Shown here piece by piece: positions 15,368-44,955 of a stretch of 64,000 nucleotides of DNA; positions within the stretch are counted from its first letter, which is position 1; every line of letters begins with the position of its first letter. The translations under genes and the position numbers were made by a program. Source of the DNA: an uncultured Chloroflexia bacterium (GTDB lineage: Bacteria; Chloroflexota; Anaerolineae; JAAYZQ01); assembly GCA_963701775.1 (NCBI GenBank), contig CAVPBH010000020.1, positions 221,527 to 285,526 of the forward strand, read 5' to 3'. The notes below the pieces were generated by a model that worked only from the letters and a program-made list of their open reading frames with translations, made no database searches and had not been told where the DNA came from.

Positions 15368-16561
15368 TCAGGCGCAGAGCGCCTGGGCGGCCAAGGCGTA
15401 GACACGCGCAGCCGCTGTGAGCTGCGCAACGTCCAGCCGCTCTTCGAGGGTGTGGCACAGGGCCTCTTTGCCCGGCCCGTAGTTGACGGTCGGGATGGCC
15501 AGGTCGTTCACCAGGAAATCCATGTCCAGGTAGCCATTGTGGTAGGCTCGCTCAGGCGGCCGGCCGGTGACTTGGCAATGCGCCTCGTGCAGCGCGCGGG
15601 TGAGCGGGCTGTCTCCGAGCGTGGCCGACGGGTTCAGGCCCCGCTGGCGGATGAGGGGCCATTTCCAGTCCGGCCGGTCGATCTCGACGCTCCCGCGGAA
15701 GCCGGGCAGCGACTCGGCCAGGCCGGCGAGAAGATCCCCGATCTCTGCCAGGACGCCTGCCTGGGTTTCGCCCGGCACCGTGCGCCGGTCGATCCAGACG
15801 TCGCAGCGATCCGGTACGTTGTTGTAGGCTGTGCCTCCCTGGATGAGGCCGACGTTGACGGTGCCGCGCACCGTCCCCACACCCGGCACATCGACCGCGC
15901 GCGGCTCGAGCCGCGCCAGCGCTTCCACGACGCGTGCGGCGTGCCCGACGGCGTTGATCCCCAACCAGGGCGTGGAGCCATGGGCCTGTTTACCCAGGAG
16001 CGTGATACGTGCCGGCACGGTACCCTTGTGGCCGACGATGAGCTGCAGGTCCGACGGCTCGGTGACGATGGCCGCTTCGGCCTGGATGCGGTCCTCCACC
16101 AGCGAGAAGCTTCCGCGATGCTCCGACTCTTCGTCGATCACCGCCGCGAGGGCCACGCCCTTGCGCAGCGGCAGGCCGGCCTGCGCCAACGCGCCGATGG
16201 CGGCGATGGAAGCGGCAAGGCCACCTTTCTGGTCCACGGCACCGCGGCCCCAGATGGCCCCGCTCACGAGGCGCCCGCTGTACGGGTCGGGCATGCCCAG
16301 TGCGGGCACCGTGTCTGTATGGGCGTGGAACAACAGCCCAACGGGCCCGCCATCGCGCCCGGGCAGCTCAGCCAGGACATTGAGCCGGCCCTGGTGGACG
16401 TCGCGCACGGTCACGGCCAAGCCCATCGCGACCAGGCGTGTGGCCAGCCACTCGCCCAGCGCCCGCTCCTGGCCGTTGGGGCTCGGGATTCGAACCAGCT
16501 CCTGGGCGAGGCTCACAAGCGCGGCATCGTCGATCTGGGACAAGAGCGAATGGGAGTCCAT
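15368..16561 (-). CDS. M20 family metallopeptidase (ArgE/DapE/N-carbamoyl-amino-acid amidohydrolase-like)
   Basis: MDSHSLLSQIDDAALVSLAQELVRIPSPNGQE...HAHTDTVP...GRGAVDQKGGLAA...IDEESEHRG; intact. Upstream in-frame extension of the ORF is probably not translated. Confidence 0.8.
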   Translation of the reverse strand: MDSHSLLSQIDDAALVSLAQELVRIPSPNGQERALGEWLATRLVAMGLAVTVRDVHQGRLNVLAELPGRDGGPVGLLFHAHTDTVPALGMPDPYSGRLVSGAIWGRGAVDQKGGLAASIAAIGALAQAGLPLRKGVALAAVIDEESEHRGSFSLVEDRIQAEAAIVTEPSDLQLIVGHKGTVPARITLLGKQAHGSTPWLGINAVGHAARVVEALARLEPRAVDVPGVGTVRGTVNVGLIQGGTAYNNVPDRCDVWIDRRTVPGETQAGVLAEIGDLLAGLAESLPGFRGSVEIDRPDWKWPLIRQRGLNPSATLGDSPLTRALHEAHCQVTGRPPERAYHNGYLDMDFLVNDLAIPTVNYGPGKEALCHTLEERLDVAQLTAAARVYALAAQALCA

Positions 16562-16608
16562 GGACCATCTCCTATGTGCTGGTGGGCGAACCAATGAGGA
16601 AACGCCAC

Positions 16609-17686
16609 TCACGACGAGCGGAGCACGAGTGCACCGGGGGAGCAGACCGAGGCGCACAGCCCGCAGGACCGGCACAGCGACCGATCCAGCAGCATCTGCC
16701 GATCAGGCGCCATCCGGCGGGCGCCATAGGCGCACACGGTGACACAGCGCCCGCACTCGGTGCACAGCTCGGGACGAAAGAGGAACTCGAGCGGTGCCCG
16801 GTCCGGCTGCTCGCGCAGGGCATCGAGTGCCACGCCGCGGAGGCCGGCCAGGGACGGCTCGCCGTGGTGTTGGAGCCAGCGCTCCATCTGCGTGACCGTC
16901 TTGGCGAACCAACCCAGGCCCAGAAGCAGCGGCGCCGTGTGCGCGCCGACCGCCGTGGCCCCGGCCATCACCATTTCGACGGCATCCTCGGCCGAGGCGA
17001 CCCCACCGGTGCCGATCACGGGCACCGGGTGGCGCAGCGCAATCTCGGCCACGGCGCGCAGCGCCAGGGGCAGGATGGCGCGGCCGGAAAGCCAGGCCCC
17101 AGAGCCCAACAAAGGGCGGCGGCGATCCAGGTCGAGGCGCAGGGCCGGGCCGACCGAGTCGATCGCCGTGATGCCGTCGGCCCCCTCGCGTATGCATGCC
17201 CCGACCACCTCTGCCAGGTTCGCCCAGTTGGCGCTGACTCTTCACGAGGATTGGGATCGAGACGGCGCGCCTTGCGGCGGCGACCATCGGGGCCGCGTCT
17301 TCCGCACGGTACGAGACCAGCTCCAGCAGGTCGGCTCCCGCGTGCGCCAGGGGCGCGGCCAGCTCGGCTACCTCGGCCGGGGTCTGGCCGGTACTAGCGA
17401 TCAATACGCCGGACCGCCCGGCCAGGCTCGGCAGCTCTTGCTCGAGCCAGTGCGAGGCCGGCAGGTCCGACCAGCCCTCGGTGTTCAGGAGGCTGCCCGC
17501 GCCGGCCGCCGCGATGTGCGGTGTGGGGTTGGTGGTCGCGCGCGGGCGGATGGTCTTGGTGACGACCGCCGCGGCGCCGGCCGCGTAGGCAGCGCGGATG
17601 CCGGCGGCGTTCCAGGAAAGCGGACCCGAAGCCAAGATGAGCGGATGCGGGAGCCGAAAGCCGCACAGGTCAACGCTCAGGTCCAT
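16609..17686 (-). CDS. dihydroorotate/dihydropyrimidine dehydrogenase-like flavoenzyme with C-terminal 2x[4Fe-4S] domain (PreA-like); one apparent frameshift near 17215
   Basis: N-terminal DHOD fold (MDLSVDLCGFRLPHPLILASGPLSWNAAGIRAAYAAGAAAVVTKTI...IPILVK). Continues in another frame (ACIREGADGITAIDSVGP...VIGTGGVASAEDAVEMVMAGATAVG). C-terminus has CTECGRCVTVCAYGA and CRSCGLCASVCSPG. Confidence 0.65.
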
Positions 17687-17705
17687 GCACCTTGCTCCCT
17701 TCCCC

Positions 17706-19064
17706 TCATCCAATGCCAAACGGTTGGGTCGAGGCGCCCCACAACTGCTGCGCCGCCTCGGCCACTCGGCGACGGGTGGCAGCTTCGTTGTAGCCAGGCA
17801 CCTGCCCGTCGCGCATCAGCCAGCGCCCGGCGCACATCACTCCCCGTAGATCGGCAGGGTTGCGCCACAGCAGGAGCTGGTCGGCCAGGTTGTGCGCGGC
17901 GAGCGGGGTGGGCAGGTCCGCCCGGATGAGCAGTAGATCGGCAGACGCACCGGGCGCCAGCACCCCGACGCCCTCCAGGCCGAGTGCCCGGGCGCCGTTC
18001 TGCGTGGCCATGGTCCACGCCACATGCGCAGGCATGACTGCGGGGTCGAGCAGGCGGGCCTTGGGGATCAGCGCGGCTGCGCGCATCACCTCGAAAAAGT
18101 TGTTCACGTAGCCGTCGGTTCCGAGCGCCACGTTGACGCCTGCCGCCAGCAGCTCGGGCACAGGCGCCAGGCCTCCGCCCACCTCGCAGTTGGAGATGGG
18201 CTGGTGCGAAACGTGCACGCCGTGACGAGCCAGGAGTTCGATCTCGGCCCTGTCGATCTGGACGCACTGCGAGGCCAGCACATGCTCACCCAGGACGCCC
18301 AGGCGCTCGTAGTAGGCAGCCGGGCGCAGGCCAAAGCGCTCCAGGCAGTATTCGGGTTCGTACGTTCCCTCTGAGAGGTGCATGTGGATGCGGGCGCCAA
18401 GCGCGGCGGCTTCCTCGAACGTCCGCCGGATAAAGTCACCCGAGCAGGTGAAGGTGGTATGAAAGCACTGCATGCCGGAGACGAGGCCCGGCTGCCGCCG
18501 GCAGGCGGCGGCGAAGCCGGCGTTCTCCTGGATGCCGAGGAGGCCGTTCTCTTCGCTCACACGCTGTGTGGCCTCGAAGGAAAGGATGCCGTGCAGCCCG
18601 CGCCGGCGGACGATGTCTGCTTCTACCTGGAGCGCGCCCGGCAGAGCATTCGGCGCCTCCAGGCAGTCGTAGAAGGCCGTCACGCCGCTGCGGATCATCT
18701 CAAGGCAGGCCCAATCTGTGGCCGCCGCGATGAGGTCATGGGTCAGGCAGTCCTCCACGCGCGGCCACCAGAAGCCGGCCAGGAACGGCCAGAAGCCGGC
18801 CGGCGCCTCGCCGAGGGGTATGCCATGTGCCAGCACGCCGTACATGTGGTGGTGGGCATTGACGAACGAGGGCGTGAGGACGCAATCCTGGGCGTCCACA
18901 ACCTCAGCGCCGGAGAAGCGGCGCCGGAGCTCCGCATTGGGTGCGGCAGCAACCACCCGGCCGTCCGCCACGGCGACCCCACAGCCGGGCTGCGGAGCCC
19001 GTGTCGTATCGGCCCACAGCCACCCACCCAGGATCAACAGCGCCGGCATGGCTGTTCTGCTCAC
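17706..19064 (-). CDS. ATZ/TRZ-family amidohydrolase (SsnA/MtaD-like aminohydrolase)
   Basis: Intact 452 aa; metal-binding HxH (SFVNAHHHMYG), HMHLSE, GTDGYVNNFFEVMRAA. Confidence 0.8.
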   Translation of the reverse strand: MSRTAMPALLILGGWLWADTTRAPQPGCGVAVADGRVVAAAPNAELRRRFSGAEVVDAQDCVLTPSFVNAHHHMYGVLAHGIPLGEAPAGFWPFLAGFWWPRVEDCLTHDLIAAATDWACLEMIRSGVTAFYDCLEAPNALPGALQVEADIVRRRGLHGILSFEATQRVSEENGLLGIQENAGFAAACRRQPGLVSGMQCFHTTFTCSGDFIRRTFEEAAALGARIHMHLSEGTYEPEYCLERFGLRPAAYYERLGVLGEHVLASQCVQIDRAEIELLARHGVHVSHQPISNCEVGGGLAPVPELLAAGVNVALGTDGYVNNFFEVMRAAALIPKARLLDPAVMPAHVAWTMATQNGARALGLEGVGVLAPGASADLLLIRADLPTPLAAHNLADQLLLWRNPADLRGVMCAGRWLMRDGQVPGYNEAATRRRVAEAAQQLWGASTQPFGIG

Positions 19065-19345
19065 CCTCCCGACACGGCCGGAAAGAGCAGTATCTCATCG
19101 CCGTCCGCCAGCACGACGCCGCGCGGCTCGCCCGAGATCAGCTTCCGGTTGACGAACATCACGAGGTGTGACACCACCGAGCCATCGGCTTCCAGCAGCA
19201 TCTCGGACAGCGGCGATCCGTGCGCGGCGGCCAGGACCTCGAGAAGGGCATAGAGGCCGGCGTTCTCGGGAAGCGCCACCGACTCCTCAGCCAGTCTCAC
19301 CGCACTGCGCAGGATGTTGTGATAGCGAACCGTCACAGTGGCCAT
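19061..19345 (-). CDS. MoaD/ThiS-family small sulfur-carrier-like protein ending in Gly-Gly
   Basis: MATVTVRYHNILRSAV...VVLADGDEILLFPAVSGG followed by stop. Immediately downstream of the first AOR gene. Confidence 0.6.
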   Translation of the reverse strand: MATVTVRYHNILRSAVRLAEESVALPENAGLYALLEVLAAAHGSPLSEMLLEADGSVVSHLVMFVNRKLISGEPRGVVLADGDEILLFPAVSGG

Positions 19346-21282
19346 TGTTTGCCTGTCCAATCTGCTTCTCCGCCGGCCTTCATTCCTGGGTAGAGCCGGC
19401 AGGCGGCCTCGTCCAGGCCCAAGTCGCGCAACCGGTCCGGCGTGGGCCAACCGGTGCGCAAGTCCCAGCCTCGGAGCGCATAGTATTCGTCGAGCATCGG
19501 CTCCAGGTCAATGACCTGACCGGCGGCGTTGCCCGAAGGCGAAGGCTCCTGGCTGAAGCGGCGCGGCAGGCGGTCGTCGGCACGGGAGATGCCGTGCAGC
19601 ACGTTGTAGCTGCGCTGAAGGTTGTAGATGCGCTCACCGATCTGTTTCAGGCGCTCGACCGGCATCTCCATGCCGGTTACTGCTTCGAGTGCCGCGGCCA
19701 GGTCGGGCCAATAGAGCTCGGCCAGTACGAAGGTCCCCCCCGACTTGCACACGCCGACCGAGTCCACCACCGCGCCGAAATCCTCCCCGTCCTTGACCAG
19801 GAAGGGCTTATGTCGGGTGGCCAGGGGTTGGGCCATCTCGGGCAGGTAAGCCTCCCCATAGCGGCGCCGTGCCTCGTCGGGGTAGCCGGTCTCGTCGATC
19901 ACGGGGAAGGCCTTGAGATGATCGGCGCCACGATTCGAGGTGGCGTGGGCCAGGCCCATCGACCGCTGCGCGCGCCCGTCCTGGGCGGCGATCTCCATGC
20001 CCTTCACGTGCATAGCGAACTCTTCGCTGCCGCGCCCGATGACCTGTGCAGCACGACGCACCCCCTCGGCCAACAGGTCGCCGAGGCCTTCGCGTGCCCC
20101 GATCTGCTCCAGCAGCCGCAAGGCCACGTCGGCCCTGCCCCATTCGAGCCATAGACCGCCCGTTTCCTCGAGGTTCAGGATTTCCTCCTGCCAAAGTTCC
20201 ATGGCAAAGCCGATTGCCCGGCCGGCCGAGATGGTGTCCATGCCCAAGTCGTCGCACATCCGGTTCGCCTTGAGGATGGCATCCAGGTCGCCGCTCCACA
20301 GGTTGGCTCCAAAGGCGTTCAGCGTCTCGTACTCGACGCTGTGCAGCGTCGTGCCGGCGAACCGGCCGTCGGGCAGGAGATGCAGCTTGTCGCAGCCTAT
20401 GGGGCAGCCAGAGCAGGCCAGGTGGCGCACCAACGCGCGCTTCTCAAGCGCCTCGGCGTTGATCTTGTCCACATCGGGGAACGACCCCGCCTGGAAGTTG
20501 CGCGTCGGAAAACGGCCCAGTGGGTCCATCAGCGAGACGATGCCGGGCGTGCCGTGCGACGAGACTGCTTTGTAGATGGGGTTGCTGCGCAGGCGCAGGT
20601 GAAAGTCCACGGCAAGAGCATGCGAGCGGGCCGGATCGGCGAAGCGCACCGACCCCTGCCCGCGCACGGCCACTGCCTTGAGGTTCTTGCTGCCCATGAC
20701 GGCACCCAGGCCGCAGCGCCCCAGCGATCGTTGTGACGTGACCTGGATGCTGGCAAAGCGCACCAGGCGCTCGCCGGCCGGCCCGATGCACGCCACCTTT
20801 ACGCCTGGGTCGCCCCACTGCCGGCGGATGGCCGCTTCAGTTTGCGACGTCGTCTGGCCCCAGAGGCCAGCGGCATCCCGCAGCTCGGCTCGGTCGCCGG
20901 CGATGGCCAGGTAGACGGGGCGCGGTGCTTGCCCGCGCACGGCGACGGCATCCCATCCGGCGAACTTTAGTTCGGGCCCAAAGAAACCGCCGGCATTGGC
21001 ATCCCCGTAGATGCCGGTGAGAGGCGACTTGGCCACGGCTTCCATGCGGCAGCTATTGGGCATGAGCGTGCCGACCAGGGGGCCGGCGGCCAGGATGAGC
21101 AGGTTCTCGGGGCCAAGTGGATCGACCCCCGGGCCGACTTCTTCCCAGAGCATCTGCGTGCCGAGCCCATTGCCGCCCAGGAAGCGCTCGGCCCATGTGG
21201 CACTCAGCTCCCGCGCCAAGATGGTGCCATGGGTGAGGTCGACGTCGAGCCACTTGCCGGCAAAGCCCTTGTAAGGGAACAT
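19333..21282 (-). CDS. tungsten-containing aldehyde:ferredoxin oxidoreductase family protein (AOR 1)
   Basis: Intact 649 aa spanning the AOR N-terminal and pterin/4Fe-4S domains (MFPYKGFAGKWLDVDLTHG...SPLTGIYGDANAGGFFGPELKFAGWDAVAVRG...GCPIGCDK...). Confidence 0.9.
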   Translation of the reverse strand: MFPYKGFAGKWLDVDLTHGTILARELSATWAERFLGGNGLGTQMLWEEVGPGVDPLGPENLLILAAGPLVGTLMPNSCRMEAVAKSPLTGIYGDANAGGFFGPELKFAGWDAVAVRGQAPRPVYLAIAGDRAELRDAAGLWGQTTSQTEAAIRRQWGDPGVKVACIGPAGERLVRFASIQVTSQRSLGRCGLGAVMGSKNLKAVAVRGQGSVRFADPARSHALAVDFHLRLRSNPIYKAVSSHGTPGIVSLMDPLGRFPTRNFQAGSFPDVDKINAEALEKRALVRHLACSGCPIGCDKLHLLPDGRFAGTTLHSVEYETLNAFGANLWSGDLDAILKANRMCDDLGMDTISAGRAIGFAMELWQEEILNLEETGGLWLEWGRADVALRLLEQIGAREGLGDLLAEGVRRAAQVIGRGSEEFAMHVKGMEIAAQDGRAQRSMGLAHATSNRGADHLKAFPVIDETGYPDEARRRYGEAYLPEMAQPLATRHKPFLVKDGEDFGAVVDSVGVCKSGGTFVLAELYWPDLAAALEAVTGMEMPVERLKQIGERIYNLQRSYNVLHGISRADDRLPRRFSQEPSPSGNAAGQVIDLEPMLDEYYALRGWDLRTGWPTPDRLRDLGLDEAACRLYPGMKAGGEADWTGKQWPL

Positions 21283-21285
21283 CTC

Positions 21286-21693
21286 TCACCCCACGCTTTC
21301 CAAGACGATTGCGCCCGGCGGACACATCGGCGCACACTCGGGCCGGCCGCCGCACAGGTCACACTTGAGTGCGACGCCCAACTCCTCGTCGACCCAGATG
21401 GAGTCATAGGGGCAGGCGGCCGCGCAGTCGCCGCAGCCCGCGCATATCCCGGTATCGACCAGCCATGCCCCGGTGCTCAGGTCCAAGGTGATGGCGCCCG
21501 TCGGGCAGGCGGCCGCGCAGGGCGCGTCGTCGCATTGGCGGCAGATGATAGGCGTGAACGGCCCTTCGTCGCGCGGAGCTGCGATGGCCACGCGCGAGCG
21601 CCGCAGCCAGACGGCCTGCTCGTGGTGAAAAGAGCAAAAGTTCTGGCAGATGCGGCAGCCGGTACACTTTTCAGCGTGAGTCTCGAGTCGCAC
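21286..21693 (-). CDS. 4Fe-4S dicluster ferredoxin-domain protein (likely AOR electron partner)
   Basis: Intact 135 aa with multiple CxxCxxCxxxCP motifs (CTGCRICQNFC, CRQCDDAPCAAACP, CAGCGDCAAACP, CDLCGGRPECAPMCP). Confidence 0.8.
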   Translation of the reverse strand: MRLETHAEKCTGCRICQNFCSFHHEQAVWLRRSRVAIAAPRDEGPFTPIICRQCDDAPCAAACPTGAITLDLSTGAWLVDTGICAGCGDCAAACPYDSIWVDEELGVALKCDLCGGRPECAPMCPPGAIVLESVG

Positions 21694-21701
21694 AGTCTCC
21701 C

Positions 21702-23594: not shown

Positions 23595-24569
23595 CTAGGC
23601 CCAGAAGTCGTGAGGCCAGGCGTGGGCCTTCAGCCTCTCCATGTCCTCGACCGGCAGTGGCCCCTTCTCCGCGGCCCGCACGTTGAACTGCACGTGGCGG
23701 GCGCGGCGGACGCCGGCGATCACCGACGATACGGCGCGATGGCTCAGGCAGAAGCGCAGTGCCGCCTCGGGGAGTGACTCCACGTCCCCGCGCAGCAGCC
23801 ATTGCAGCGCCTGGGTATGTTCGTAGACTTGCTGTTTGCGGTCGCCACGGAAATAGTCGTTGCGCCAGTCGCCCTCCGGGAAGGTCGTCTCGGGCCCGAT
23901 CATGCCGGTGAGTGAGCCCTCGTCAAAGGGGCAGCGGGCGATGATGCCGACGTTGTTCCGCTGGGCCAGCGGGAAGAGTGCCTGTTGCGGCTCCTGCTGG
24001 TAGATGTTGTAGACCACTTCGCAGGCGTCAATCAGCCCGGTAGCGATCGCCTCTCGGGGCAGGTGCGCCTCGGTAAACGGAAAGACCAGCGACAGGCCAA
24101 AGGCGCGGATCTTGCCCTGCTCCTTGAGCCGCACCACCGCCTCCTTCCAGCCGTCGAACGCTGCCCATTCGTCCAGCCACACGTGCATCATCTGCAGGTC
24201 GAGCGTCTCCTGCCCCAGGTTCTGCAGGCTCTGCTCGGTGCTGTCGATGATCCACTGCGCGGAAAATGCTTCGACGAACGAGTCGCCGGGCTTTGGTGAG
24301 AAGTTGTAGTTCATGGGCCGCACTTTTGTGCCTACGTGCACCCGCTCCGAGCGGCCGCGCAGGGCCTGGCCGATCAGCCGCTCGCTGTGGCCGGCGCCAT
24401 ACCCCATGGCCGTGTCGACAAAGGTGACGCCGAGGTCGATGGCCTGGCCTAGTGCGGCCAGAGCCTCGTCATCGCTGCTGCCCTTCCACCAGTCACCGCC
24501 AATGCCCCAAGCACCAAAGCCGACCTCGGACACTTCAAAGCCCGTCTTGCCCAACATTCGATAACGCAT
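23595..24569 (-). CDS. aldo/keto reductase
   Basis: Intact 324 aa (MRYRMLGKTGFEVSEVGFGAWGIGG...FVDTAMGYGAGHSERLIG...). Confidence 0.85.
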   Translation of the reverse strand: MRYRMLGKTGFEVSEVGFGAWGIGGDWWKGSSDDEALAALGQAIDLGVTFVDTAMGYGAGHSERLIGQALRGRSERVHVGTKVRPMNYNFSPKPGDSFVEAFSAQWIIDSTEQSLQNLGQETLDLQMMHVWLDEWAAFDGWKEAVVRLKEQGKIRAFGLSLVFPFTEAHLPREAIATGLIDACEVVYNIYQQEPQQALFPLAQRNNVGIIARCPFDEGSLTGMIGPETTFPEGDWRNDYFRGDRKQQVYEHTQALQWLLRGDVESLPEAALRFCLSHRAVSSVIAGVRRARHVQFNVRAAEKGPLPVEDMERLKAHAWPHDFWA

Positions 24570-26522: not shown

Positions 26523-26547
26523 TCTCTTCCTTTCAGTCCTCTCCGGT

Positions 26548-35610: not shown

Positions 35611-35622
35611 GGCAATCTCTCC

Positions 35623-37793: not shown

Positions 37794-37884
37794 GGGCCCC
37801 TCCGCTTCCGCGTTGTGTCCTTACTCAGCCGTGAGATGGAGTTACGTGCCACGGTCCCACCTGCCTGGATTCCCCGCTTTCGTC

Positions 37885-37982
37885 GCGAGGCAAATGATAT
37901 AATCACTTGCCATACAGAATATATCATATCGAGAGCAGATTGTCAAGTGATACTTGACAGCGGTCCGGACTTGTGATATACT
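37885..37982 (+). promoter_or_regulatory. divergent regulatory region: TATAAT box, 19-bp perfect palindrome TGTCAAGTGATACTTGACA overlapping a TTGACA-N17-TATACT promoter for gntR
   Basis: Palindrome at 37941-37959; TTGACA at 37954-37959, 17-bp spacer, TATACT at 37977-37982. Upstream GATATAATCA palindrome; motif TTATATCATTTG present twice in opposite orientation (about 37890 and 37995). Confidence 0.5.
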
Positions 37983-38055
37983 CTTTTCCGTAGTTGGTTA
38001 TATCATTTGGGCATCGACCGCAAGGGCCGGATCGCGCGCGCGTCAGGAGTCACCG

Positions 38056-38826
38056 ATGACATCCGAGATGGCCGAACGCACTGAACTGGATCGTGGTGCC
38101 GAAATCCCGCTGTACCGGCGGATCGAAAAGGATTTGCTGACACAAATCGTCGAGGGCAGGCTCGAGCCTGGTCAGGCAATTCCGGCAGAGCGCGAGCTGT
38201 GCGACCTGTATGGCGTCAGCCGGATCACGGTGCGGCACGCCATCCGCGAGCTGGAAACCTCGGGCTACATACAGCGGCGCCAGGGAAAGGGCACGTTCGT
38301 CAGCCGCTCGCGCATCCGGCGCGAGATGGGCCGCTTGATCAGCTTCTCCGAGGAGCTCCGCCTGCAGGGGCGCGTGCCAGGCTCACGCCTTCTGAACCTC
38401 CAACACCGCCCGTCTGATGCTGCCACTTCCGCCCTACTCCGCATCCAGGAAGGTGAGCCGATGTGGATCGTGGAGCGGCTGCGCCTGGTCGACGGCGAGA
38501 TCGCCTCGCTGAGCATCTCCTATCTGCATCTTCCTCCCGAGGTCTATCTGACCCCTATGGAGCTCACGAACCAGCCTTCCCTTTGGGCCCTGCTCGAAGA
38601 GAAAGGGATCGTCATCTGTGAAGGCGACACTCTAGTACGTGCGATTGCCGCCGATGGTCACAATGCCCGCCTGTTGGGGGTGGCGGAAGGAGACCCGCTC
38701 TTGCTGCGCGAGGGTGTCAACTACGCCATGGGGGAAGCCCTGCAGGCGGTGGAGGCCTTTCAGACCATTAGCCGTGCCGATAGATACCACTACTCTCTGC
38801 ACCTCATCCGGCAAGGGTGCCCATAG
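38056..38826 (+). CDS. GntR family transcriptional regulator, HutC subfamily (UTRA effector domain)
   Basis: N-terminal wHTH (IPLYRRIEKDLLTQIVEGRLEPGQAIPAERELCDLYGVSRITVRHAIRELETSGYIQRRQGKGTFV). UTRA-like C-terminal domain. ATG at 38056. Confidence 0.85.
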   Translation: MTSEMAERTELDRGAEIPLYRRIEKDLLTQIVEGRLEPGQAIPAERELCDLYGVSRITVRHAIRELETSGYIQRRQGKGTFVSRSRIRREMGRLISFSEELRLQGRVPGSRLLNLQHRPSDAATSALLRIQEGEPMWIVERLRLVDGEIASLSISYLHLPPEVYLTPMELTNQPSLWALLEEKGIVICEGDTLVRAIAADGHNARLLGVAEGDPLLLREGVNYAMGEALQAVEAFQTISRADRYHYSLHLIRQGCP

Positions 38827-38971
38827 GGGAGCAAGGTGCCACGTAGGGCAAGCCTCGAAGCTTGCCTCGAATGCACAGCAGAAAGGAGGGAGAAGAGAAG
38901 GATAAGAACTGCCTGATGTGGGATGTCGAAGGGTAGGTCAAATGCTAGGAATCCAACGAGGAGGAAAGACA

Positions 38972-40366
38972 ATGTTGGTCAAGCGAGTTGTGTTTGCGAT
39001 TCTGTGTGTGGTAATGCTGGCGGCGTGCGGCGCCCAGCCCACCGCCGAGACTGTGATCCAGACAGTGAAAGAGACCGTCGAAGTGCCGGTGGAGCAGACG
39101 GTCGTGGTGCCGGTGGAGCAGACGGTCGTGGTGCCGGTAGAGCAGACGGTGATCGTGCCGGAAAACAAGCTTCAACTCTCCTTCGCCGGTCACGAGTACT
39201 TCAACTTGTCCTTCGGCCCGGCCGATCCGCCCCTGGTGACCATGCGGAAGGTAGCCGAGGCAAATTTCCCCGGCACCGAAATCCAGCTCATCATGCAGCC
39301 ACTGGATGGCAACAAGTATCACGACAACCTCGCCACTTACTTTGTGGCCAAAGACGCAACGGTGGACCTGATGTACGCCGCCGGCTACTGGATGACCGAG
39401 TTTGGCGCGGCCGGGTGGCTCGTGCCGCTCCAGGACAAGCTGGACCCCGCAGTGCTGGCCAAGTACGACCAGGCGTCACTCGACACCTTCAGCTACAAGG
39501 GTGACCTGCTGGGCATCGGCCCCGTGTGGGGCGGCATCGGTGGCCTCTACTACCGCAAGGACCTGCTCGATGCAGCCGGCCTGGCAGCACCGGCGACCTA
39601 CGATGACCTCATCGCCGCCTGCGATACGATTCTCCCCAACAACCCGGGCATGGGCTGCTGGGATTGGCCGGCCATGCGCAACCTCGTGCTGGTCAACCGC
39701 TGGTCGGAGTACCTGTACGGCTTTGGCGGCCAGTACAAGAACGAGTCTGACAAGTGTGCTATGAATTCGGCGGAAGGCGTGGCCGCCCTGGAGTTCATGA
39801 TTGGCCTGTTCGAGAACGGCTACACACCTCAAGAGGCGCTGTCGTGGAAAGAGGAAGACTCCAGCATCCGCTTCATCAGCGGCCAGACCCTCTTTGTTTC
39901 TGCGCGCCAGGACCTGCTGAACTACATCGACGACCCGACCAAGTCGCAGGTCGCCGGCAAGTGGGGCTTTATCCCCAACCCTGCCCAGCCGGGTGGCCGG
40001 CCCTCCGGCTTCACCGAGTTCTGGGCCTTTGCGATCTCTGCATCCTCGGACAACATCGACGAGGCGGTCAAAGTGCTGAACGTCTGGGCAGATACGGCGA
40101 CCATGGTGCCCTTCAACCTGGCCTGGGGCCCAATCCAGGGCAATGCCGAGGTCTACCAGGACGCCACAGTGCTCGCGGGCAACAAGTTCTTGCCCCTCGT
40201 CCAGGAGATCGCCAAGACGGCATTGGCGCCGCTGCCCAGCGCCAACTACGGCGAAGTAGTAGATGTCCTGCAGGCTGAGCTCCACTCGGCACTGTCGGGG
40301 AGCAAGACGGCGCAGCAGGCGCTGGACGATGCCTGTGCAGCCATCGATGTGATCGACGCGGAGTAG
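38972..40366 (+). CDS. ABC transporter substrate-binding lipoprotein (CUT1 family) with repetitive linker
   Basis: GAGGAGGA Shine-Dalgarno; signal peptide with lipobox (VVMLAACGAQP); family-1 solute-binding fold; intact. Confidence 0.85.
   Translation: MLVKRVVFAILCVVMLAACGAQPTAETVIQTVKETVEVPVEQTVVVPVEQTVVVPVEQTVIVPENKLQLSFAGHEYFNLSFGPADPPLVTMRKVAEANFPGTEIQLIMQPLDGNKYHDNLATYFVAKDATVDLMYAAGYWMTEFGAAGWLVPLQDKLDPAVLAKYDQASLDTFSYKGDLLGIGPVWGGIGGLYYRKDLLDAAGLAAPATYDDLIAACDTILPNNPGMGCWDWPAMRNLVLVNRWSEYLYGFGGQYKNESDKCAMNSAEGVAALEFMIGLFENGYTPQEALSWKEEDSSIRFISGQTLFVSARQDLLNYIDDPTKSQVAGKWGFIPNPAQPGGRPSGFTEFWAFAISASSDNIDEAVKVLNVWADTATMVPFNLAWGPIQGNAEVYQDATVLAGNKFLPLVQEIAKTALAPLPSANYGEVVDVLQAELHSALSGSKTAQQALDDACAAIDVIDAE
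39083..39154 (+). repeat. 3 x 24-bp tandem repeat encoding VPVEQTV(V/I) in the SBP linker
   Basis: gtgccggtggagcagacggtcgtg repeated three times with minor changes, in frame within the SBP gene. Confidence 0.7.
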
Positions 40367-40463
40367 CCGCGCATCACCCGTCGGCCTTTGAGTGAGCATC
40401 CGCGTCCCCGGGCTTGATCCGGGGACGCGGACCTTGCCCAAGGGAGGGCTCGAAGTGCCGGTC

Positions 40464-41402
40464 ATGGAGAACAGAATGGCGCAAGGCGCAGTGCATAGAG
40501 CCAGGCGGCCCAGGAGGCTCAGCGAGCCGACCATGGCTCTCATCTTCCTGTTGCCTGCTTTCATCGCAGTCGCGATCTTCCTGTACTATCCCCTGGTCCA
40601 GACCTTCATCTACAGCTTTTTCAAGATGCAGCGCACCATGGACTGGCTGCATGCCCCCTTCGTGGGCCTCAAGAACTATATCACGGTACTGACAAGCGAG
40701 GCATTCCGCGGGGCCTTTCTGTTCACGCTCTACTTCACCGTCGTGTCTGTGGCGCTGGAGATTGGCTTGGGGCTGGGCATGGCGATGGCCACGTTTTCGG
40801 TGTCCTCCCGGCTGCGGGGTGTCCTGCGCGCGGTGCTGGTGGTGCCGTGGGCCATCCCGCCCGTGGTGTCTGCCATGGTCTGGAAGTGGCTATACCACCC
40901 AGACGCCGGGTTGTTCGGCTACCTGGTACACGCCTCCGGCCTGACCGACAGCGCACCGCAATTCCTGACCGACCCGATCTTGGCCGTCCACTCTATTATC
41001 CTGGCCGACGTTTGGAAGAACTCGTCGATCATGGGCATCTTGATGCTGGGTGGGCTGGCGGCGATCTCCAAGGACGTCTACGACGCCGCAAAGGTTGACG
41101 GCGCGCGCGGATGGTTCCGTTTCCGGCGTGTGACGCTGCCTCTCCTCTTGCCCACCGTCCTGGTGTGCCTCCTCTTCCGTTCGTTGGAGGCGTTCCGCAT
41201 GTTCGAGCTGTCGTTTGCGTTGACGGGTGGTGGGCCGGGGACCACAACCGACACTCTGAGTACCTTCGCCTACAAGTACTTTTTCACCTATTCCAAGTTC
41301 GGACTGGGTTCTTCGTATGCCATGGTGATCTTTGCGATTGTCCTCGTGCTGGCCATCGCCTACGTGAGCCGCATCCGCAAGAACCTGAGGTTCAAAGGAT
41401 GA
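40464..41402 (+). CDS. ABC transporter permease (MalF-like, CUT1 family)
   Basis: Permease signature with six TM segments (…DVYDAAKVDGARGWFRFRRVTLPLLLPT…). Start ambiguous (ATG at 40464 or later at MALIF). Confidence 0.8.
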   Translation: MENRMAQGAVHRARRPRRLSEPTMALIFLLPAFIAVAIFLYYPLVQTFIYSFFKMQRTMDWLHAPFVGLKNYITVLTSEAFRGAFLFTLYFTVVSVALEIGLGLGMAMATFSVSSRLRGVLRAVLVVPWAIPPVVSAMVWKWLYHPDAGLFGYLVHASGLTDSAPQFLTDPILAVHSIILADVWKNSSIMGILMLGGLAAISKDVYDAAKVDGARGWFRFRRVTLPLLLPTVLVCLLFRSLEAFRMFELSFALTGGGPGTTTDTLSTFAYKYFFTYSKFGLGSSYAMVIFAIVLVLAIAYVSRIRKNLRFKG

Positions 41403-42331
41403 AAAGCAAGCACCGATACAGGTACCGGCGCCGCGCGAACCAGGTGCTGGACGTGCTGATCACGCTGCTCATTGCGGGCTTTTGCCTGGGTCCGCTCTAT
41501 TGGATTCTCGCCACCTCGTTCAAGCCGATGGGCACCGAGTACCTGATCCCACCCGAAGGGTGGCCGTCGAAGCCAACACTCGAAGCGTATCGGATTATCC
41601 TGGGAATCCCGTCCAAGGCCTCGCAGGAGGGGGTCAGTGGTGAGGGGGTGTTCGGGTCGGCCACGGAGGTGCCGCAGGCACCCTCACTGCACTTCCTTCT
41701 CCCGATTCGGAACAGCCTGATCGTCTCGTCGACGGTGGCGGTATGCAGCCTGTTCATCTGTTCGCTGGCGGCCTACACCATCGCCCGGCTGCGCTTCCGC
41801 TGGAAGATCCAGTCGCTACTCCTGCTGCAGGTGGCCGGGCTCCTGCCGGCGGTGATGGTCATAGCGCCTACCTTTGTGCTGATGCAAAAGCTCGACCTGC
41901 TGCGCACCCTGCCGGCCATCATCCTGCCCAACATTGCCTACAACGTCCCGCTCGGCACGTGGCTCCTGGCCGCCTATTTCTCGGAACTACCATGGGAGCT
42001 GGAGGATGCAGCCAAAGTGGACGGCTACAAGCCCTTCCAGATCTTCCGCAAGGTTATCTTGCCACTTGCAGCACCCGGCCTCTTTTCCGCCGGCGTGTTT
42101 GCGTTCCTGGGTTCTTGGGGCGAGTTCATCCTCTCCAGCGTGGTTACGATGGGCGTGAGTAGCGTCCAGACCGTCCCGGTCGCCATCTTGAACCTATCGT
42201 TCGAGTTCCGCTATCAGTGGACCTGGGTCTCGGCCGCCATCATTCTCTCGGTAGGCCTGATGGTGGCCATTGCCCTCTTCTTCCAGCGATGGGTCATCCA
42301 GGGCCTGACCGCAGGCTCTGTCAAATACTAG
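41399..42331 (+). CDS. ABC transporter permease (MalG-like, CUT1 family)
   Basis: ATG at 41399 overlaps the upstream stop (ATGA); …[28 protein letters not shown]…; intact. Confidence 0.85.
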
Positions 42332-42344
42332 GGAGGAAATCCGC

Positions 42345-43448
42345 GTGGCCGAAGTACGAGTAGAGAGCCTGTGCAAAGCCTTTGGCGAAGTGGGGGCCTT
42401 GCACGATGTGAGCTGCGCTTTCGAGGACAGGAGGCTGACGGTGCTGGTAGGCCCGTCCGGCTGTGGCAAATCCACTCTTCTGCGCACCGTGGCCGGGCTG
42501 CAAGATCCGACCAGCGGAACCGTCTACATCGGGGACGAGGACGTAAGCGGGGCTCCCCCCTGGGATCGAAACGTGGCAATGGTCTTCCAGAGCTATGCGC
42601 TCTACCCACACATGACCGTGTTCAAGAACATCGCCTTCCCCCTCGAAGCCGCCAAGATCCACAAGGACGAGATCCGGCGGCGGGTGACAGAGACCGCCAA
42701 GATCCTGCAGATCGAAGAACTGTTGAAGCGCAAGCCGCGGGAGCTGTCGGGAGGCCAGATGCAGCGCGTCGCGTTGGGGCGTGCCATCGTACGCCAACCC
42801 GATGTCTTCCTGATGGACGAGCCCCTGTCGAACCTCGATGCCAAGCTTCGCGTCCTGATGCGCGCCGAGCTCAAGCACCTGCAGCGGCAGCTCCAGGTGA
42901 CCACGATCTATGTAACGCATGACCAGGCCGAGGCCATGACGCTGGCCGACAAGCTGATCGTTATGAATGCAGGCCGCATCCAGCAGATGGGCAAGCCCGA
43001 GGACATTTACCGCCGGCCGGCCAACAAATTCGTAGCTGGCTTCATTGGCAGCCCTCCCATGAACTTTGTGGGATGCCGGTACGATCCCGAGCTCGAAACG
43101 TTGAGCGGCGCCGCGTTCGACATCCCGGTGCCGGCCCGGTGGCGCGGCGTGCTGCGGGGTGGTCCTGCACGGTCGCTCATCCTCGGGATCCGCCCCGAGG
43201 ACCTGGTGGTGGAGACGAGCCCTGTCCCCGGTGCAGTGAGGGCGACCGTCTACGTCATAGAGCAGATGGGCCGGGAGATCCTTCTCACGGCCATGCTGGG
43301 GACAGACGCCGTCCGGGTCTTCACCTCGGCCGACGCCACCCTGGACGCCGAACAGGAGGTGTGGTTGTCGATGCGCGAAGGGGCCACGCACCTGTTCGAC
43401 GGGCAGACGGAGGAATCGCTAGACTCGAGCGAAGCGCCCAAGGCCTGA
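42345..43448 (+). CDS. ABC transporter ATP-binding protein (MalK/UgpC-like)
   Basis: Walker [10 protein letters not shown], signature [14 protein letters not shown], Walker [13 protein letters not shown]; C-terminal TOBE-like domain; intact. Confidence 0.9.
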
Positions 43449-43477
43449 GGCACGCGACCCTTGGCTACGGTTTGCAC

Positions 43478-43500
43478 AGCCCGCGGCAGAGTCGCGGGCT
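43478..43500 (+). terminator. GC-rich hairpin after the ABC ATPase gene (weak terminator candidate, no T-tract)
   Basis: AGCCCGCGgcagagtCGCGGGCT, 8-bp perfect stem. Confidence 0.25.
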
Positions 43501-43506
43501 CTTGCT

Positions 43507-44955
43507 ATGACAAGGAAATGCCGAGAAGAAGAGAGCGTGGAAGCCAGGATCGCATGCCCTGAAGTGGACCTCGTCGTAGAACACGGTGCCGTCGTGGTCA
43601 TGGACGATGCCAGGACCATCCTCTGGGACGGCAGCCTGGCCATCGACCAGGGCCGCATCGTGGACGTCGGCCCCGCGAGCGATCTTTCCGGGCGCTACGT
43701 GGCCCACAGGAAGATCGACGCCCGACACAAGGCCGTCCTGCCCGGCCTGATCGACACCCATCACCACTTTCTACAGAACCTGGCCAAAGGCTCCCGAGAC
43801 GACCTGGCATTCCCGGATGAGTGGATTTCGCAAGTCTCGTCGCCGCTGATCGGCATGGCGGTGTGCGACTACCTGGCATGCGACTCGGAGCTCCAGCGTC
43901 ATGCGACGCGCATTGGCTGCGCCGAAGCGCTCCTTTCCGGGATCACGTGCATCGTCAATATGGAGTGGGCCACACCACCGGATGTCGTTGATATGTACGA
44001 GGAGGCGGGCATCCGCGCCGTGCACGTCCTCACCCTGACCGACGTCGACGAGTGGGGGAGCCCTGGGATGCTGCTGGGGGTGGACGCGACACTCGATCTG
44101 GCCGAGCGGCTCATCGAGCGCTGTGCACGCTCGGCCTCGGGCAGGGTGACCTTCCGGTACGGCCCAGCCTGCGAGAACTCGGTCAGCACCGGGCTACTGC
44201 GCCAGGTGCGCCGGCTGGCCGGCGAGCACAACTTGGGCATCCACATGCACATCGCCGAAAGCCGCTACGGCTGGGACAACATCCGGCGGAGACACAGCAG
44301 GACCCCTGTGCAGTACCTGGCCGAGCTGGGCATGCTGGGGCCAGACATGCTCGGCGCACATTGCATCTGGCTGGACGATGACGACATCCGCATACTGCGC
44401 GAGACCGGCACCTCGGTCTCGTACAACCCCGAATGCAATATGAAGATCGCGCTCGGCACAGCGCGCGTAGTAGACATGCTTGCGGCAGGCGTGGCCGTGT
44501 CGCTCGGCACCGACACATGTGCGGTCAATGACAACATGGACCTGTTCGAGGCCATGCGAGTAGGGGCGTTCCTGCAGAAACACGCTGCCATGGACCCGGC
44601 AGTCGTACCTGCCTGGGAGGCGCTGCGCATGGCGACGGCGGGCGGTGCACGGGCGCTCGGCCTTGGCGACGAAATCGGCACGCTGGAAGCCGGCAAGAAA
44701 GCCGATCTCATCCTGGTGGACCTGGAGGGAGTGCACTTGCGGCCGATCAATCACTTGGCCAACACCCTGGTGTACGCGGCCGGCGCCCGGGATGTTGAGA
44801 CGGTCATCGTCGACGGGCAAATCGTGGTGGAAGGCCGGGAGCTGCGTGCCTTCGACGCCGGGGCAGCGATGGCACAGGCAGAGCAATACGCCGCGCGGCG
44901 CTTTGAAGCAACCGGCTTGTACGTATCGCCCTACTACACCGGCTCCCGCTGCTGA
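43507..44955 (+). CDS. ATZ/TRZ-family amidohydrolase, paralog of 26548-27999
   Basis: Intact 482 aa; LPGLIDTHHHFLQNLAKG, HMHIAESRYG, YNPECNMKIALG, SLGTDTCAVNDNMDLFEAMR. Confidence 0.8.
   Translation: MTRKCREEESVEARIACPEVDLVVEHGAVVVMDDARTILWDGSLAIDQGRIVDVGPASDLSGRYVAHRKIDARHKAVLPGLIDTHHHFLQNLAKGSRDDLAFPDEWISQVSSPLIGMAVCDYLACDSELQRHATRIGCAEALLSGITCIVNMEWATPPDVVDMYEEAGIRAVHVLTLTDVDEWGSPGMLLGVDATLDLAERLIERCARSASGRVTFRYGPACENSVSTGLLRQVRRLAGEHNLGIHMHIAESRYGWDNIRRRHSRTPVQYLAELGMLGPDMLGAHCIWLDDDDIRILRETGTSVSYNPECNMKIALGTARVVDMLAAGVAVSLGTDTCAVNDNMDLFEAMRVGAFLQKHAAMDPAVVPAWEALRMATAGGARALGLGDEIGTLEAGKKADLILVDLEGVHLRPINHLANTLVYAAGARDVETVIVDGQIVVEGRELRAFDAGAAMAQAEQYAARRFEATGLYVSPYYTGSRC

Follow-up and report, generated by a model that had tools for sequence, protein, structure and literature searches.

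The window analysed here is a 64-kb stretch (64,000 nucleotides) of contig CAVPBH010000020.1 from an uncultured Chloroflexia bacterium. It contains a gene island of about 30 kb which combines corrinoid methyltransferases with amidohydrolases, sugar-type enzymes and tungsten-type oxidoreductases, and which is considered here as a candidate system for the anaerobic use of methylated purine-type compounds. The island comprises 19 packed minus-strand genes (15368-37793) and a divergent plus-strand operon (38056-44955), and its features are collected in Table 1. From the promoter, the minus-strand order is MttB1, a corrinoid protein, an MtmB-like protein, MttB2, an FGGY kinase, a DhnA/DeoC-family aldolase and GlcD-like and GlcF-like proteins, continuing with the amidohydrolase AmhB, a Zn-dependent dehydrogenase (Zn-ADH), an Ftr-like protein, an aldo-keto reductase (AKR), the aldehyde:ferredoxin oxidoreductase (AOR) AOR2, a ferredoxin and AOR1, and ending distally with MoaD-like, SsnA-like, PreA/UacX-like and M20 proteins. 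The plus-strand order is a GntR/UTRA regulator, a substrate-binding protein (SBP), two permeases, a MalK-type ATPase and the amidohydrolase AmhC. Searches with Pfam and NCBIfam confirmed the tightly spaced row of 19 genes described in the original prediction, with all the families listed there, and the pairing of this row with a divergent GntR/HutC regulator and with a CUT1 importer followed by a third ATZ/TRZ amidohydrolase. The families had been named correctly, although the AKR, Zn-ADH and MoaD-like genes had been omitted from the list.

Intergenic gaps in the minus-strand block are of about 62 nt at most and several genes overlap by 4-8 nt, also across module borders. The G+C content of the window is about 65%, and nearly all homologues of its proteins come from metagenome-assembled genomes (MAGs) of Chloroflexota/Anaerolineae. 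The flanks are unrelated to the island: ArsR, GcvH, DGC and thioredoxin genes on the left, and HtrA, a two-component system and envelope genes on the right. No strong promoter was identified inside the 22-kb minus-strand block, where terminator-like sites are no commoner than in shuffled sequence; the next promoter matching 11 of 12 consensus positions lies beyond the block at 15265 and serves the unrelated ArsR gene. Given the unrelated flanks and the lack of strong internal promoter or terminator signals, the limits first drawn for the island are therefore retained. A single long transcript of the minus-strand genes is plausible from these signals.

Table 1. Features of the island and of its control region, with positions in the window
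Feature	Coordinates	Strand	Remarks
M20 (ArgE/DapE/YgeY-like) amidohydrolase	15368..16675	-	island member by adjacency only
PreA/PydA/UacX-like FMN + Fe-S reductase	16615..17692	-	PF01180-type; frameshift near 17232-17240
SsnA-like ATZ/TRZ amidohydrolase	17706..19064	-	orthologues in L007, L010, L025, L062
MoaD/ThiS-like small protein	19061..19345	-	94 aa, C-terminal Gly-Gly
AOR1, tungsten-type AOR	19333..21282	-	AFOR_N + AFOR_C; PDB 1AOR 1e-135
Polyferredoxin, 4Fe-4S dicluster domains	21286..21693	-	likely electron partner of the AORs
AOR2, tungsten-type AOR	21702..23588	-	AFOR_N + AFOR_C; PDB 1AOR 3e-118
AKR	23595..24569	-	Pfam/NCBIfam; kept next to core cluster in relatives
Ftr-like protein	24595..25467	-	290 aa; FTR + FTR_C domains; ~30% identity to Ftr
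Zn-dependent medium-chain (MDR) dehydrogenase, Zn-ADH	25464..26537	-	closest to threonine (3-dehydrogenase)/polyol dehydrogenases
AmhB, ATZ/TRZ-family amidohydrolase	26548..27999	-	PDB 4dyk, 4gbd, 4f0r, ~1e-58 to 1e-63
GlcF/GlpC-like Fe-S subunit	27996..29117	-	two CCG domains; Pfam/NCBIfam
GlcD-like FAD-linked dehydrogenase	29128..30469	-	split by 1-nt insertion near 30255
DhnA/DeoC-family class I aldolase (ADH-synthase/LsrF-like)	30462..31223	-	PDB: MJ0400 2e-55, LsrF 4e-29
FGGY (xylulokinase-like) sugar kinase	31227..32676	-	closest to XylB; split by 1-nt insertion near 32340
MttB2, second non-pyrrolysine MttB-superfamily methyltransferase	32687..34171	-	PF06253 8e-80, 269 bits; open reading frame continuous
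Non-pyrrolysine MtmB-family methyltransferase	34222..35610	-	462 aa; PF05369 3e-78
Corrinoid (B12-binding) protein	35623..36303	-	B12-binding + B12-binding_2 domains
MttB1, non-pyrrolysine MttB-superfamily corrinoid methyltransferase	36366..37793	-	475 aa; PF06253 5e-87, 292 bits
Symmetric control region	37891..38009	.	perfect 12-bp inverted repeat, arms just downstream of each -10 box
8+3+8 palindrome TGTCAAGTgatACTTGACA	37941..37959	.	TGTCAAGT-gat-ACTTGACA
GntR/HutC-family regulator	38056..38826	+	256 aa; N-terminal GntR helix-turn-helix + C-terminal UTRA effector domain
CUT1-type ABC importer	38918..43448	+	SBP_bac_1, two BPD_transp_1 permeases, ATPase with MalK OB/TOBE domains
SBP of the importer	38918-40366	+	closest to MalE3, TMBP; also sulfoquinovosyl-glycerol binder
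Two permeases of the importer	~40470-41402, ~41381-42331	+	
MalK-type ATPase of the importer	42345-43448	+	
AmhC, third ATZ/TRZ amidohydrolase	43507..44955	+	coupled to transporter; like MTA/SAH/5'-deoxyadenosine deaminases

Some gene models were corrected. The aldolase is the 253-aa open reading frame (ORF) given in Table 1 and not an overlapping 279-aa ORF in another frame. The regulator gene starts at the ATG at 38056, which leaves an intergenic region of 262 bp, and MttB2 probably starts near 34138 (its homologues begin at 34138-34156). Among the related loci, designated here with the letter L, the contig L115 is 92.5% identical to the window over 12.7 kb and encodes a regulator of the same 256 aa. 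Compared with all relatives three genes are split by frameshifts: FGGY, GlcD-like and PreA/UacX-like. The first two are split by one inserted base each with respect to L115, where FGGY (482 aa) and GlcD (446 aa) are intact. These frameshifts may be assembly errors, or real pseudogenes and gene decay; overlapping partial ORFs are also found elsewhere in the window (e.g. 334-1300 and 53689-57134) and indels are perhaps widespread in this assembly. No island protein reached an NCBIfam function-naming cutoff and all equivalog cutoffs were missed; the only models passed, narrowly, were two generic subfamily ones (ArgE/DapE for M20 and NF005556 for the aldolase). Judged by these scores the island proteins are divergent paralogues of the named enzymes.

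The control region lies between the two operons, both of which are driven, as read from its sequence, from this one symmetric region beside a dedicated regulator. A perfect 19-bp palindrome had been proposed in the GntR promoter; the symmetric site is present, with an 8+3+8 spacing (TGTCAAGT-gat-ACTTGACA) rather than as a perfect 19-mer. It consists of the -35 hexamers (TTGACA), placed back to back, of two divergent promoters close to consensus, one on the plus strand (37954..37982, -10 TATACT) and one on the minus strand (37946..37918, -10 TATATT). Both promoters agree with the consensus at 11 of 12 positions and have 17-nt spacing and a TG extension. No other promoter match of this quality occurs within 35000-45600. 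The reading of the palindrome as purely a regulator site was revised because the same bases form both -35 boxes, and its role as GntR operator is possible. The palindrome is identical in L115 and L037. The arms of the 12-bp inverted repeat, CAAATGATATAA (37891-37902) and TTATATCATTTG (37998-38009), are centred on 37950, the palindrome's own centre, and are candidate operators of a HutC-type repressor. This repeat is unique in the window at up to one mismatch and is kept in L115 and L037, and ATGATATAA-like copies were identified in the GntR-methyltransferase intergenic regions of L001, L002, L038 and L076 (MtmB 69-81% identical). The divergent region is nearly mirror-symmetric across 119 bp (outer repeat, two extended -10 and two -35 boxes), a layout kept in relatives whose DNA is about 92% identical. 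No riboswitch was identified by Rfam in the window or in seven Bacillota/Spirochaete loci, the sole hit being a marginal PYLIS_3 match inside MttB1.

The first genes of the minus-strand block form the methyltransferase module. MttB1 has no in-frame stop codon and is of 475 aa also in L115; neither MttB1 (336 bits) nor MttB2 (298 bits) reaches the cutoff of 525 of TIGR02369, the model of the pyrrolysine (Pyl)-type trimethylamine methyltransferase. The MtmB-like protein is full-length for PF05369 (264 bits, profile positions 6-445 of 450), its ORF is uninterrupted with no in-frame UAG, and it is about 30% identical to M. barkeri MtmB, whose Pyl202 is aligned with Tyr203. An exact look-up of this protein found no record. 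The corrinoid protein gene is immediately upstream, and its best NCBIfam models are MtgC/MtbC-like, all under cutoff. By analogy with known corrinoid methyltransferases the MtmB-like and MttB proteins are expected to act by transfer of an N-methyl group to Co(I). The PYLIS_3 match in MttB1 (36755-36857, minus strand; 38.9 bits against a gathering score of 38) begins in phase at codon 313, TTG (Leu), one base from TAG, and is perhaps mere coding homology with mttB.

The first function of a non-pyrrolysine MtmB was described in 2026 for MtqB of Methanococcoides methylutens Q3c, acting on tetramethylammonium and choline, the remaining non-Pyl MtmBs being of unknown function (PMC13044021). The MtmB-like and corrinoid proteins of the window share with MtqB/MtqC the family PF05369, the lack of a pyrrolysine codon and the adjacent cognate corrinoid protein. 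MtqB works in a methanogen and its methyl group passes on to coenzyme M, whereas the MtmB-like protein belongs to the bacterial/archaeal clade of 'unknown function' of the same study (PMC13044021). In the loci compared here this clade is found in purine- and sugar-catabolic clusters. MtgB, MtcB, MtpB and MtyB (for glycine betaine, carnitine, proline betaine and gamma-butyrobetaine) and the choline system of E. limosum resemble the window in having PF06253, no amber codon and a position beside a corrinoid protein (PMC8604678, PMC12155760), and relatives of the window carry Pterin_bind or URO-D second methyltransferases and a RACo activase like the known MttB-superfamily systems. The latter are three- or four-gene units for aliphatic quaternary amines (PMC8604678, PMC12155760), whereas the 19-gene operon of the window has a single corrinoid protein for three methyltransferases, together with deaminase-like, sugar, AOR and purine-ring genes.

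The comparison covered about 110 related loci. A scan of a genome collection, seeded only on the Ftr-like protein, gave 29 loci. Chloroflexota are represented by Anaerolineae/Caldilineae and other members, Bacillota/Clostridia by loci that include one in the complete genome of Ca. Formimonas warabiya DCMF, and Spirochaetales and Thermotogae by one MAG each. The core, in the order (ADH')-FGGY-aldolase-GlcD-GlcF-AmhB-ADH-Ftr-like with AKR and GntR nearby, was identified in nearly all of the 29 loci. MttB/MtmB genes are present in 19, usually with the corrinoid protein, and MttB2 is the methyltransferase most often adjoining the core; four others contain only URO-D and/or Pterin_bind methyltransferases and the last six are short or truncated contigs. 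This gene arrangement, recurring in dozens of loci of four phyla, is far beyond chance as judged from gene order. The co-variation check suggested with the original prediction thus gave a positive answer: methyltransferases, corrinoid protein, amidohydrolase, sugar enzymes and Ftr-like protein co-vary across phyla, as a module and not as a mosaic.

The opposite explanation is that the island is a mosaic of independent pathways without a shared substrate, namely quaternary-amine methylotrophy, a pentose/polyol route, aldehyde oxidation and reductive purine degradation. It draws on the distal tail AOR2-ferredoxin-AOR1-MoaD-SsnA-UacX, which is kept in three Anaerolineae loci, absent from most, rearranged in Thermotogae (L025 and L062) and inverted upstream in L043; the AOR/SsnA/UacX genes form an accessory module of only a subset of the related loci. 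The M20 gene was identified in the window and in no related locus, the modules are separate elsewhere (L033-L036, L116 and L117), and the SsnA/UacX/YgeY steps belong to a characterised pathway. A mosaic is nevertheless quite improbable: methyltransferase, corrinoid protein, sugar/Ftr core, AmhB, AKR and a transporter recur together across the four phyla despite replacement of the transporter, the Ftr-like subfamily occurs only in this context, the gene overlaps cross the module borders with no strong promoter or terminator between them, and the symmetric control region is a single one beside its regulator.

The transporter is the variable part of the related loci. The CUT1 system is the version of Chloroflexota, the Bacillota versions carry an energy-coupling factor (ECF) system with a private S-component, and a Bmp/PnrA-type ABC system was identified in L014, L018, L022 and L023. 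For the Bmp protein of L022 the nearest relatives are the purine/triazine binders 3s99 and AtzT. A homologue of AmhC follows the transporter in both situations, after CUT1 in the window and after Bmp in L022 (62% identical). The idea of an imported compound is in line with this replacement of CUT1 by Bmp/PnrA-type or ECF systems. The putative S-component, of about 204 aa (L011 11047-11658; also in L014, L018 and L021), has no Pfam or NCBIfam match, is always beside EcfT and two EcfA in Bacillota clusters, and is perhaps a new substrate-specific family.

The MtmB clade is linked to purine genes. Seeding a metagenome scan with an MtmB alignment yielded 78 loci, and the counts refer to those of at least 8 kb (22 + 15), where the corrinoid protein is present in 33 of 37. 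Close MtmB homologues (69-98% identical) are found in the same cluster type as that of the window, and in the group with MtmB at least 60% identical (n=15) the sugar/Ftr core was identified in 12 loci and a CUT1 transporter in 9. The group with MtmB less than 60% identical (n=22) contains genes of the xanthine dehydrogenase (XDH) family in 13, Bmp-ABC in 11 and an ATZ/TRZ amidohydrolase in 14. Genes of one or more of the XDH-family, Bmp-ABC and purine-ring kinds are present in 19 of the 22, a count made with no matched random control. By our own rough estimate only a few percent of random 20-kb stretches would contain an XDH-family or Bmp gene. Mixed loci (L056, L062, L025, L004 and L013) combine the sugar/Ftr core and the purine-type sets.

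The distant MtmB homologues compared (40-55% identity) come from the contexts L033-L036. The Bathyarchaeia-like L033 contains two MtmB genes in a complete reductive purine cluster formed by XDH-family, PreT, PreA, two pyridoxal-phosphate enzymes (lyases), carbamate kinase, two ornithine carbamoyltransferase-like proteins, an amidohydrolase and Bmp-ABC. In L035 and L036 (about 5000-13600) the set is Bmp-ABC, a short-chain dehydrogenase/reductase, a Rieske/VanA-type oxygenase, an ATZ/TRZ amidohydrolase, a corrinoid protein, MtmB, RACo and a three-subunit XDH; O2-dependent and corrinoid-dependent demethylation may share one locus there. L034 presents three consecutive corrinoid-protein/MtmB pairs (6317-13555) along with GntR/UTRA, Bmp-ABC and an XDH-family gene, an array suggestive of stepwise removal of three methyl groups. 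In anoxic sediment the N-methyl carbon of caffeine reaches methane by an anaerobic route with no enzyme identified, and Anaerolineae and Bathyarchaeia were enriched in that study (bioRxiv 10.64898/2026.01.06.697959).

The middle of the island is formed by the sugar-type enzymes. The aldolase passes NF005556 by little (242.8 bits, cutoff 241) and remains below TIGR01949 (234.6 against 299) and the LsrF model NF006081 (168 against 297). The neighbouring pair falls short of the glycolate oxidase GlcDEF models: GlcD reaches 103-123 bits where the cutoff is 568, the match to GlcF is confined to the N-terminal part and there is no GlcE. An Ord-like amine dehydrogenase takes the place of GlcD/GlcF in L013 and recurs in L018, L025 and L076. 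AmhB is closest to deaminases of 5'-methylthioadenosine (MTA), S-adenosylhomocysteine (SAH) and 5'-deoxyadenosine, and the top NCBIfam model of AmhC is the 5'-deoxyadenosine deaminase (340 bits, cutoff 522).

These likenesses are the basis of a second explanation, the scavenging of MTA and 5'-deoxyadenosine, nucleosides formed as by-products from S-adenosylmethionine. The nucleosides would be deaminated to inosine forms by DadD/MtaD-like enzymes, the 5-deoxy or 5-methylthio pentose reduced by AKR, re-oxidised near the methyl end by the ADH, phosphorylated by the kinase and split by the aldolase to dihydroxyacetone phosphate (DHAP) and a C2 unit, this last oxidised by the AORs, with the S-methyl group passing to the corrinoid protein. 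In agreement with it, the aldolase relatives MJ0400 and LsrF both act on methyl-ketone sugar phosphates, the ADH and the kinase are closest to threonine 3-dehydrogenases and XylB, the Bacillota versions have vitamin-type (ECF) and nucleoside-type (Bmp) transporters, and E. coli is known to grow on 5'-deoxynucleosides (PMC10986504). The salvage of 5-deoxyribose by the DHAP shunt (DrdK-DrdI-DrdA; MtnK-MtnA-Ald2; PMC6079011, PMC10986504) shares with this proposed route the logic of a kinase and an aldolase turning an unusual pentose into DHAP and C2. The kinase of the window is of another family, however, AKR and ADH stand instead of the isomerase and the aldolase is of class I and not class II; domain scans of the island identified none of the MtnK/DrdK kinase, MtnA/DrdI isomerase and class II aldolase of the known routes (PMC6079011). 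In the autoinducer-2 (AI-2) pathway LsrK-LsrG-LsrF, the kinase and aldolase LsrK/LsrF resemble the adjacent FGGY kinase and DhnA-type aldolase of the window, which has DadD/MtaD-like deaminases, no LsrG and no Lsr transporter. Moreover, 5'-deoxyadenosine has no transferable methyl group and MTA is an uncharged thioether, unlike the known MttB/MtmB substrates; the MtmB clade beside XDH-family and purine-ring genes in loci without sugar genes is left unexplained, and so are GlcD/GlcF and the Ftr-like protein. For these reasons MTA and 5'-deoxyadenosine are held to be improbable substrates.

The Ftr-like gene always adjoins the Zn-ADH gene, which in the window overlaps its start by 4 nt. Its predicted model has the full Ftr fold (pLDDT 88.6, TM-score 0.86 to 1ftr), and its scores are below the NCBIfam cutoffs (155 bits against 297 and 134 against 293). 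With Ftr (formylmethanofuran:tetrahydromethanopterin formyltransferase) it shares both domains and the fold, at about 30% identity, but it forms a separate bacterial subfamily. This is a narrow one, with only two full-length 50%-identity representatives better than E=1e-100 and then a gap to 37-40% identity. Asn236 is found at the position of a Glu in 16 of 17 more distant Ftr representatives, and Asn is also present there in the two subfamily representatives; the position is invariant in all 16 sequences of alignment A1. The conserved Glu corresponds to Glu245 in M. kandleri numbering, which we take to be the catalytic acid. No C1 genes of methanofuran or tetrahydromethanopterin were identified in the window or in the 29 related loci. 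Of the Ftr/FhcD-like formyltransferase originally proposed the fold and domains thus stand, whereas the formyltransferase label is not established because the near-invariant Glu of Ftr has been lost.

Next to the AKR lie the two AORs, both closest to the AOR of P. furiosus, ahead of FOR, WOR5 and BamB; by this resemblance they are predicted to be aldehyde-oxidising AORs sensu stricto. A role as purine (de)hydroxylases was set aside as speculative because both are closest to bona fide aldehyde-oxidising AOR. In L004, L013 and L056 a three-subunit enzyme of the XDH family is found next to the core, and in L004 (12062-15716) this Mo-hydroxylase comes directly after the AKR, the site of the AORs in the window (19333-23588). 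The AOR is directly beside the corrinoid-protein/MtmB pair in the short contigs L053, L100 and L102.

The distal genes had been compared to reductive purine clusters, and this comparison is borne out in part through the reductive uric-acid (2,8-dioxopurine) pathway of E. coli and C. difficile (XdhD, YgfK/UacX, SsnA, HyuA, YgeW/UacY, YgeY and YgeX), which was characterised in 2025 (PMC12507026). In partial likeness to that pathway, the window presents an SsnA-like gene, then a UacX-type one (PF01180 and Fe-S) directly downstream, then M20; the intact L007 orthologue of the second has DHO_dh and a C-terminal 2x[4Fe-4S] part. In contrast to the pathway, XdhD, HyuA, YgeW/YqeA/UacY and YgeX are absent from the window, and the SsnA models (236 and 226 bits, cutoffs 444 and 455) and the YgeY model (173 bits, cutoff 321) are not reached. 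The ATZ/TRZ chlorohydrolase model scores about equal to those of SsnA, and M20 passes the generic ArgE/DapE subfamily with 219.4 bits against 217.6. The M20 part of the comparison is weakened by the confinement of that gene to the window. HyuA is present in L007, L025 and L062, the D-hydantoinase of the relatives scores above its NCBIfam cutoff, and the full XdhD/HyuA/YgeW-YqeA-UacY/YgeX set was identified in L033. The window differs further in having two tungsten AORs where L004 and L056 have the XDH-family enzyme, and in the joining of this module to methyltransferases and sugar enzymes.

Considering all these elements, the favoured reading, which is put forward tentatively and at somewhat below an even chance, is that the island would be one GntR/HutC-controlled unit for the anaerobic catabolism of methylated purine nucleosides. 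Within it, the substrates are most likely methylated purine nucleosides from nucleic-acid turnover, and cationic N-methyl species such as 7-methylguanosine (m7G) and 1-methyladenosine (m1A) would chemically be the best fit for MttB/MtmB-type enzymes. The central idea of the original prediction, an N-methylated N-heterocycle or nucleoside whose methyl passes to a corrinoid, followed by deamination or ring opening and by the AORs, is favoured by the comparative genomics. The CUT1 system would import a methylated purine-type compound carrying a sugar, and MttB1, the MtmB-like protein and MttB2 would pass its methyl groups to the Co(I) corrinoid protein, with the methylcorrinoid:tetrahydrofolate methyltransferase and the reductive activase presumably encoded elsewhere in the genome. 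AmhC and AmhB would hydrolyse an exocyclic amidine (deamination) or open the ring. The sugar could be converted from aldose to polyol to ketose by AKR and Zn-ADH and then phosphorylated by the FGGY kinase; cleavage by the DhnA-type class I aldolase would give DHAP and a short aldehyde, which the AORs would oxidise with ferredoxin, leaving a 2-hydroxy acid for GlcD/GlcF. The base would enter a reductive ring degradation by the UacX-like reductase, the SsnA-like ring hydrolase and the M20 amidohydrolase. The Ftr-like protein might handle a formamide from ring opening, which is the weakest step of the proposal. The data themselves show the gene content, the operon-like layout, the co-variation across phyla, the exchange of transporters and the association of the MtmB clade with purine genes, whereas all substrates and the sequence of steps are inferred. 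The combination of these families is not described in the literature searched, nor is a link of MttB/MtmB to purines or nucleosides, nor the Ftr-like cluster.

Several observations weigh against this favoured reading. To our knowledge the substrates of MttB/MtmB enzymes are all small aliphatic amines, with no heterocycle among them. The methylcorrinoid:tetrahydrofolate methyltransferase and the activase were not found in the window, the flanks of the island included; the window also lacks XDH, a Bmp transporter, hydantoinase and YgeX. No nucleoside hydrolase or phosphorylase was identified in the window, the flanks or the related loci examined, unlabelled neighbours included. Normal ribose would need no aldolase route, and the compound may therefore contain an unusual sugar or be something other than a riboside. 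To these points are added the missed function-naming cutoffs and the frameshifts in three pathway genes of this assembly. Finally, in L012 and L015 the sugar/Ftr core lacks AmhB and is accompanied instead by a GH4 glycosidase, a PfkB kinase and a URO-D methyltransferase, and MttB2 homologues of 55-56% identity occur in sugar-type contexts with no recognisable purine-catabolic genes (L116 and L117); L117 comprises MtmB, MttB, CUT1, LacI, an Ord-like dehydrogenase and DHDPS.

These last loci point to a third explanation, a methylated sugar, amino sugar or glycoside without purine, of which the N-methylated sugar had been named in the original prediction. The corrinoid systems would take off N- or O-methyl groups, GlcD/GlcF or the Ord-like enzyme of L013, L018, L025 and L076 would oxidise the amine or hydroxyl left behind, and AKR, ADH, kinase and aldolase would process the carbon chain, with the ATZ/TRZ enzymes acting on an amidine or guanidine substituent of the sugar. 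The SBP of the window agrees with such a compound, its closest relatives being the disaccharide binders MalE3 and TMBP and the sulfoquinovosyl-glycerol binder, and three methyltransferases fit the stepwise demethylation of a trimethylammonium group. Nonetheless, genes of Bmp-type (purine) transporters, of XDH-family and ATZ/TRZ deaminase-like enzymes and of SsnA/UacX/hydantoinase recur in association with both the cluster and the MtmB clade, AmhB is present in nearly every locus, and no abundant natural candidate compound is evident. A methylated sugar is on this balance unlikely. Other candidates were also set aside: catabolism of methanopterin, folate, riboflavin or F420, whose methyl groups are on carbon or which lack a polyol; mycosporine-like amino acids and aminoglycosides, as unsupported; and glycerophosphocholine, with no phosphodiesterase.

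A wider proposal can be made from the favoured reading. The non-pyrrolysine MtmB clade and the MttB paralogues could represent the missing O2-independent N-demethylase of methylated purines and nucleosides, with a new, non-oxidative and formyl-capturing ring-opening branch of Ftr-like protein, Zn-ADH and amidohydrolase; as a whole this is rather doubtful. Under this proposal m7G, m1A and methylxanthines such as caffeine would be substrates and their methyl groups would be fed into tetrahydrofolate. Instead of being released, a purine carbon would be trapped as a formyl group, and removal of the ribosyl part would need no nucleosidase, following a logic that resembles riboflavin synthesis in reverse: ring opening, deformylation, deamination and then reduction of the ribosylamine. 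We know of no enzyme for the anaerobic N-demethylation of methylated purines. In caffeine-degrading Pseudomonas the Rieske N-demethylases NdmA/B/C depend on O2 and produce formaldehyde. On the favoured reading the island would do the same job, a stepwise removal of N-methyl groups before ring degradation, whereas the corrinoid route would run without O2 and keep the methyl as methyl-tetrahydrofolate.

The non-pyrrolysine MtmB homologues are roughly one thousand and, except for the one methanogen enzyme of 2026, have no known function. Wherever RNA and DNA break down, methylated bases and nucleosides are set free, and the methyl of caffeine has been traced into methane in anoxic sediments. The island and its relatives provide a testable candidate system with a cross-phylum gene set, of which Ca. 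Formimonas warabiya is available in enrichment culture. The locus also brings to light a bacterial subfamily of Ftr-like proteins outside the methanopterin context, and it shows that tungsten AORs and Mo-hydroxylases of the XDH family can occupy the same position in a purine-linked cluster. If the proposed function is true, a hidden methyl source for acetogens and syntrophs would have to be added to the carbon-cycle models of sediments, soils and digesters.

Other elements were identified in the surroundings of these clusters. L012 (2298-3698) and L015 (2465-3865) contain a 467-aa protein, starting with MYVYICFDVEDP, between GntR and FGGY, with no Pfam or NCBIfam match. The region 4314-20501 of L116 is an unusually dense methyltransferase island, where the 56% MttB2 homologue is found among eight URO-D-family methyltransferase genes and two corrinoid proteins, along with an AOR and a MoaD-like gene, an HpcH aldolase and a GFO/IDH/MocA oxidoreductase. 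A GcvH-like lipoyl-carrier gene is located just outside the cluster in three loci: the window (12733-15196, minus strand), L011 (19369-19785) and L031 (19810-20214). In the window it is grouped with two DGC-domain proteins, an OsmC-like protein, thioredoxin and DsbD, behind ArsR with its own promoter at 15265, and a thiol/redox link of these neighbours to corrinoid systems is possible.

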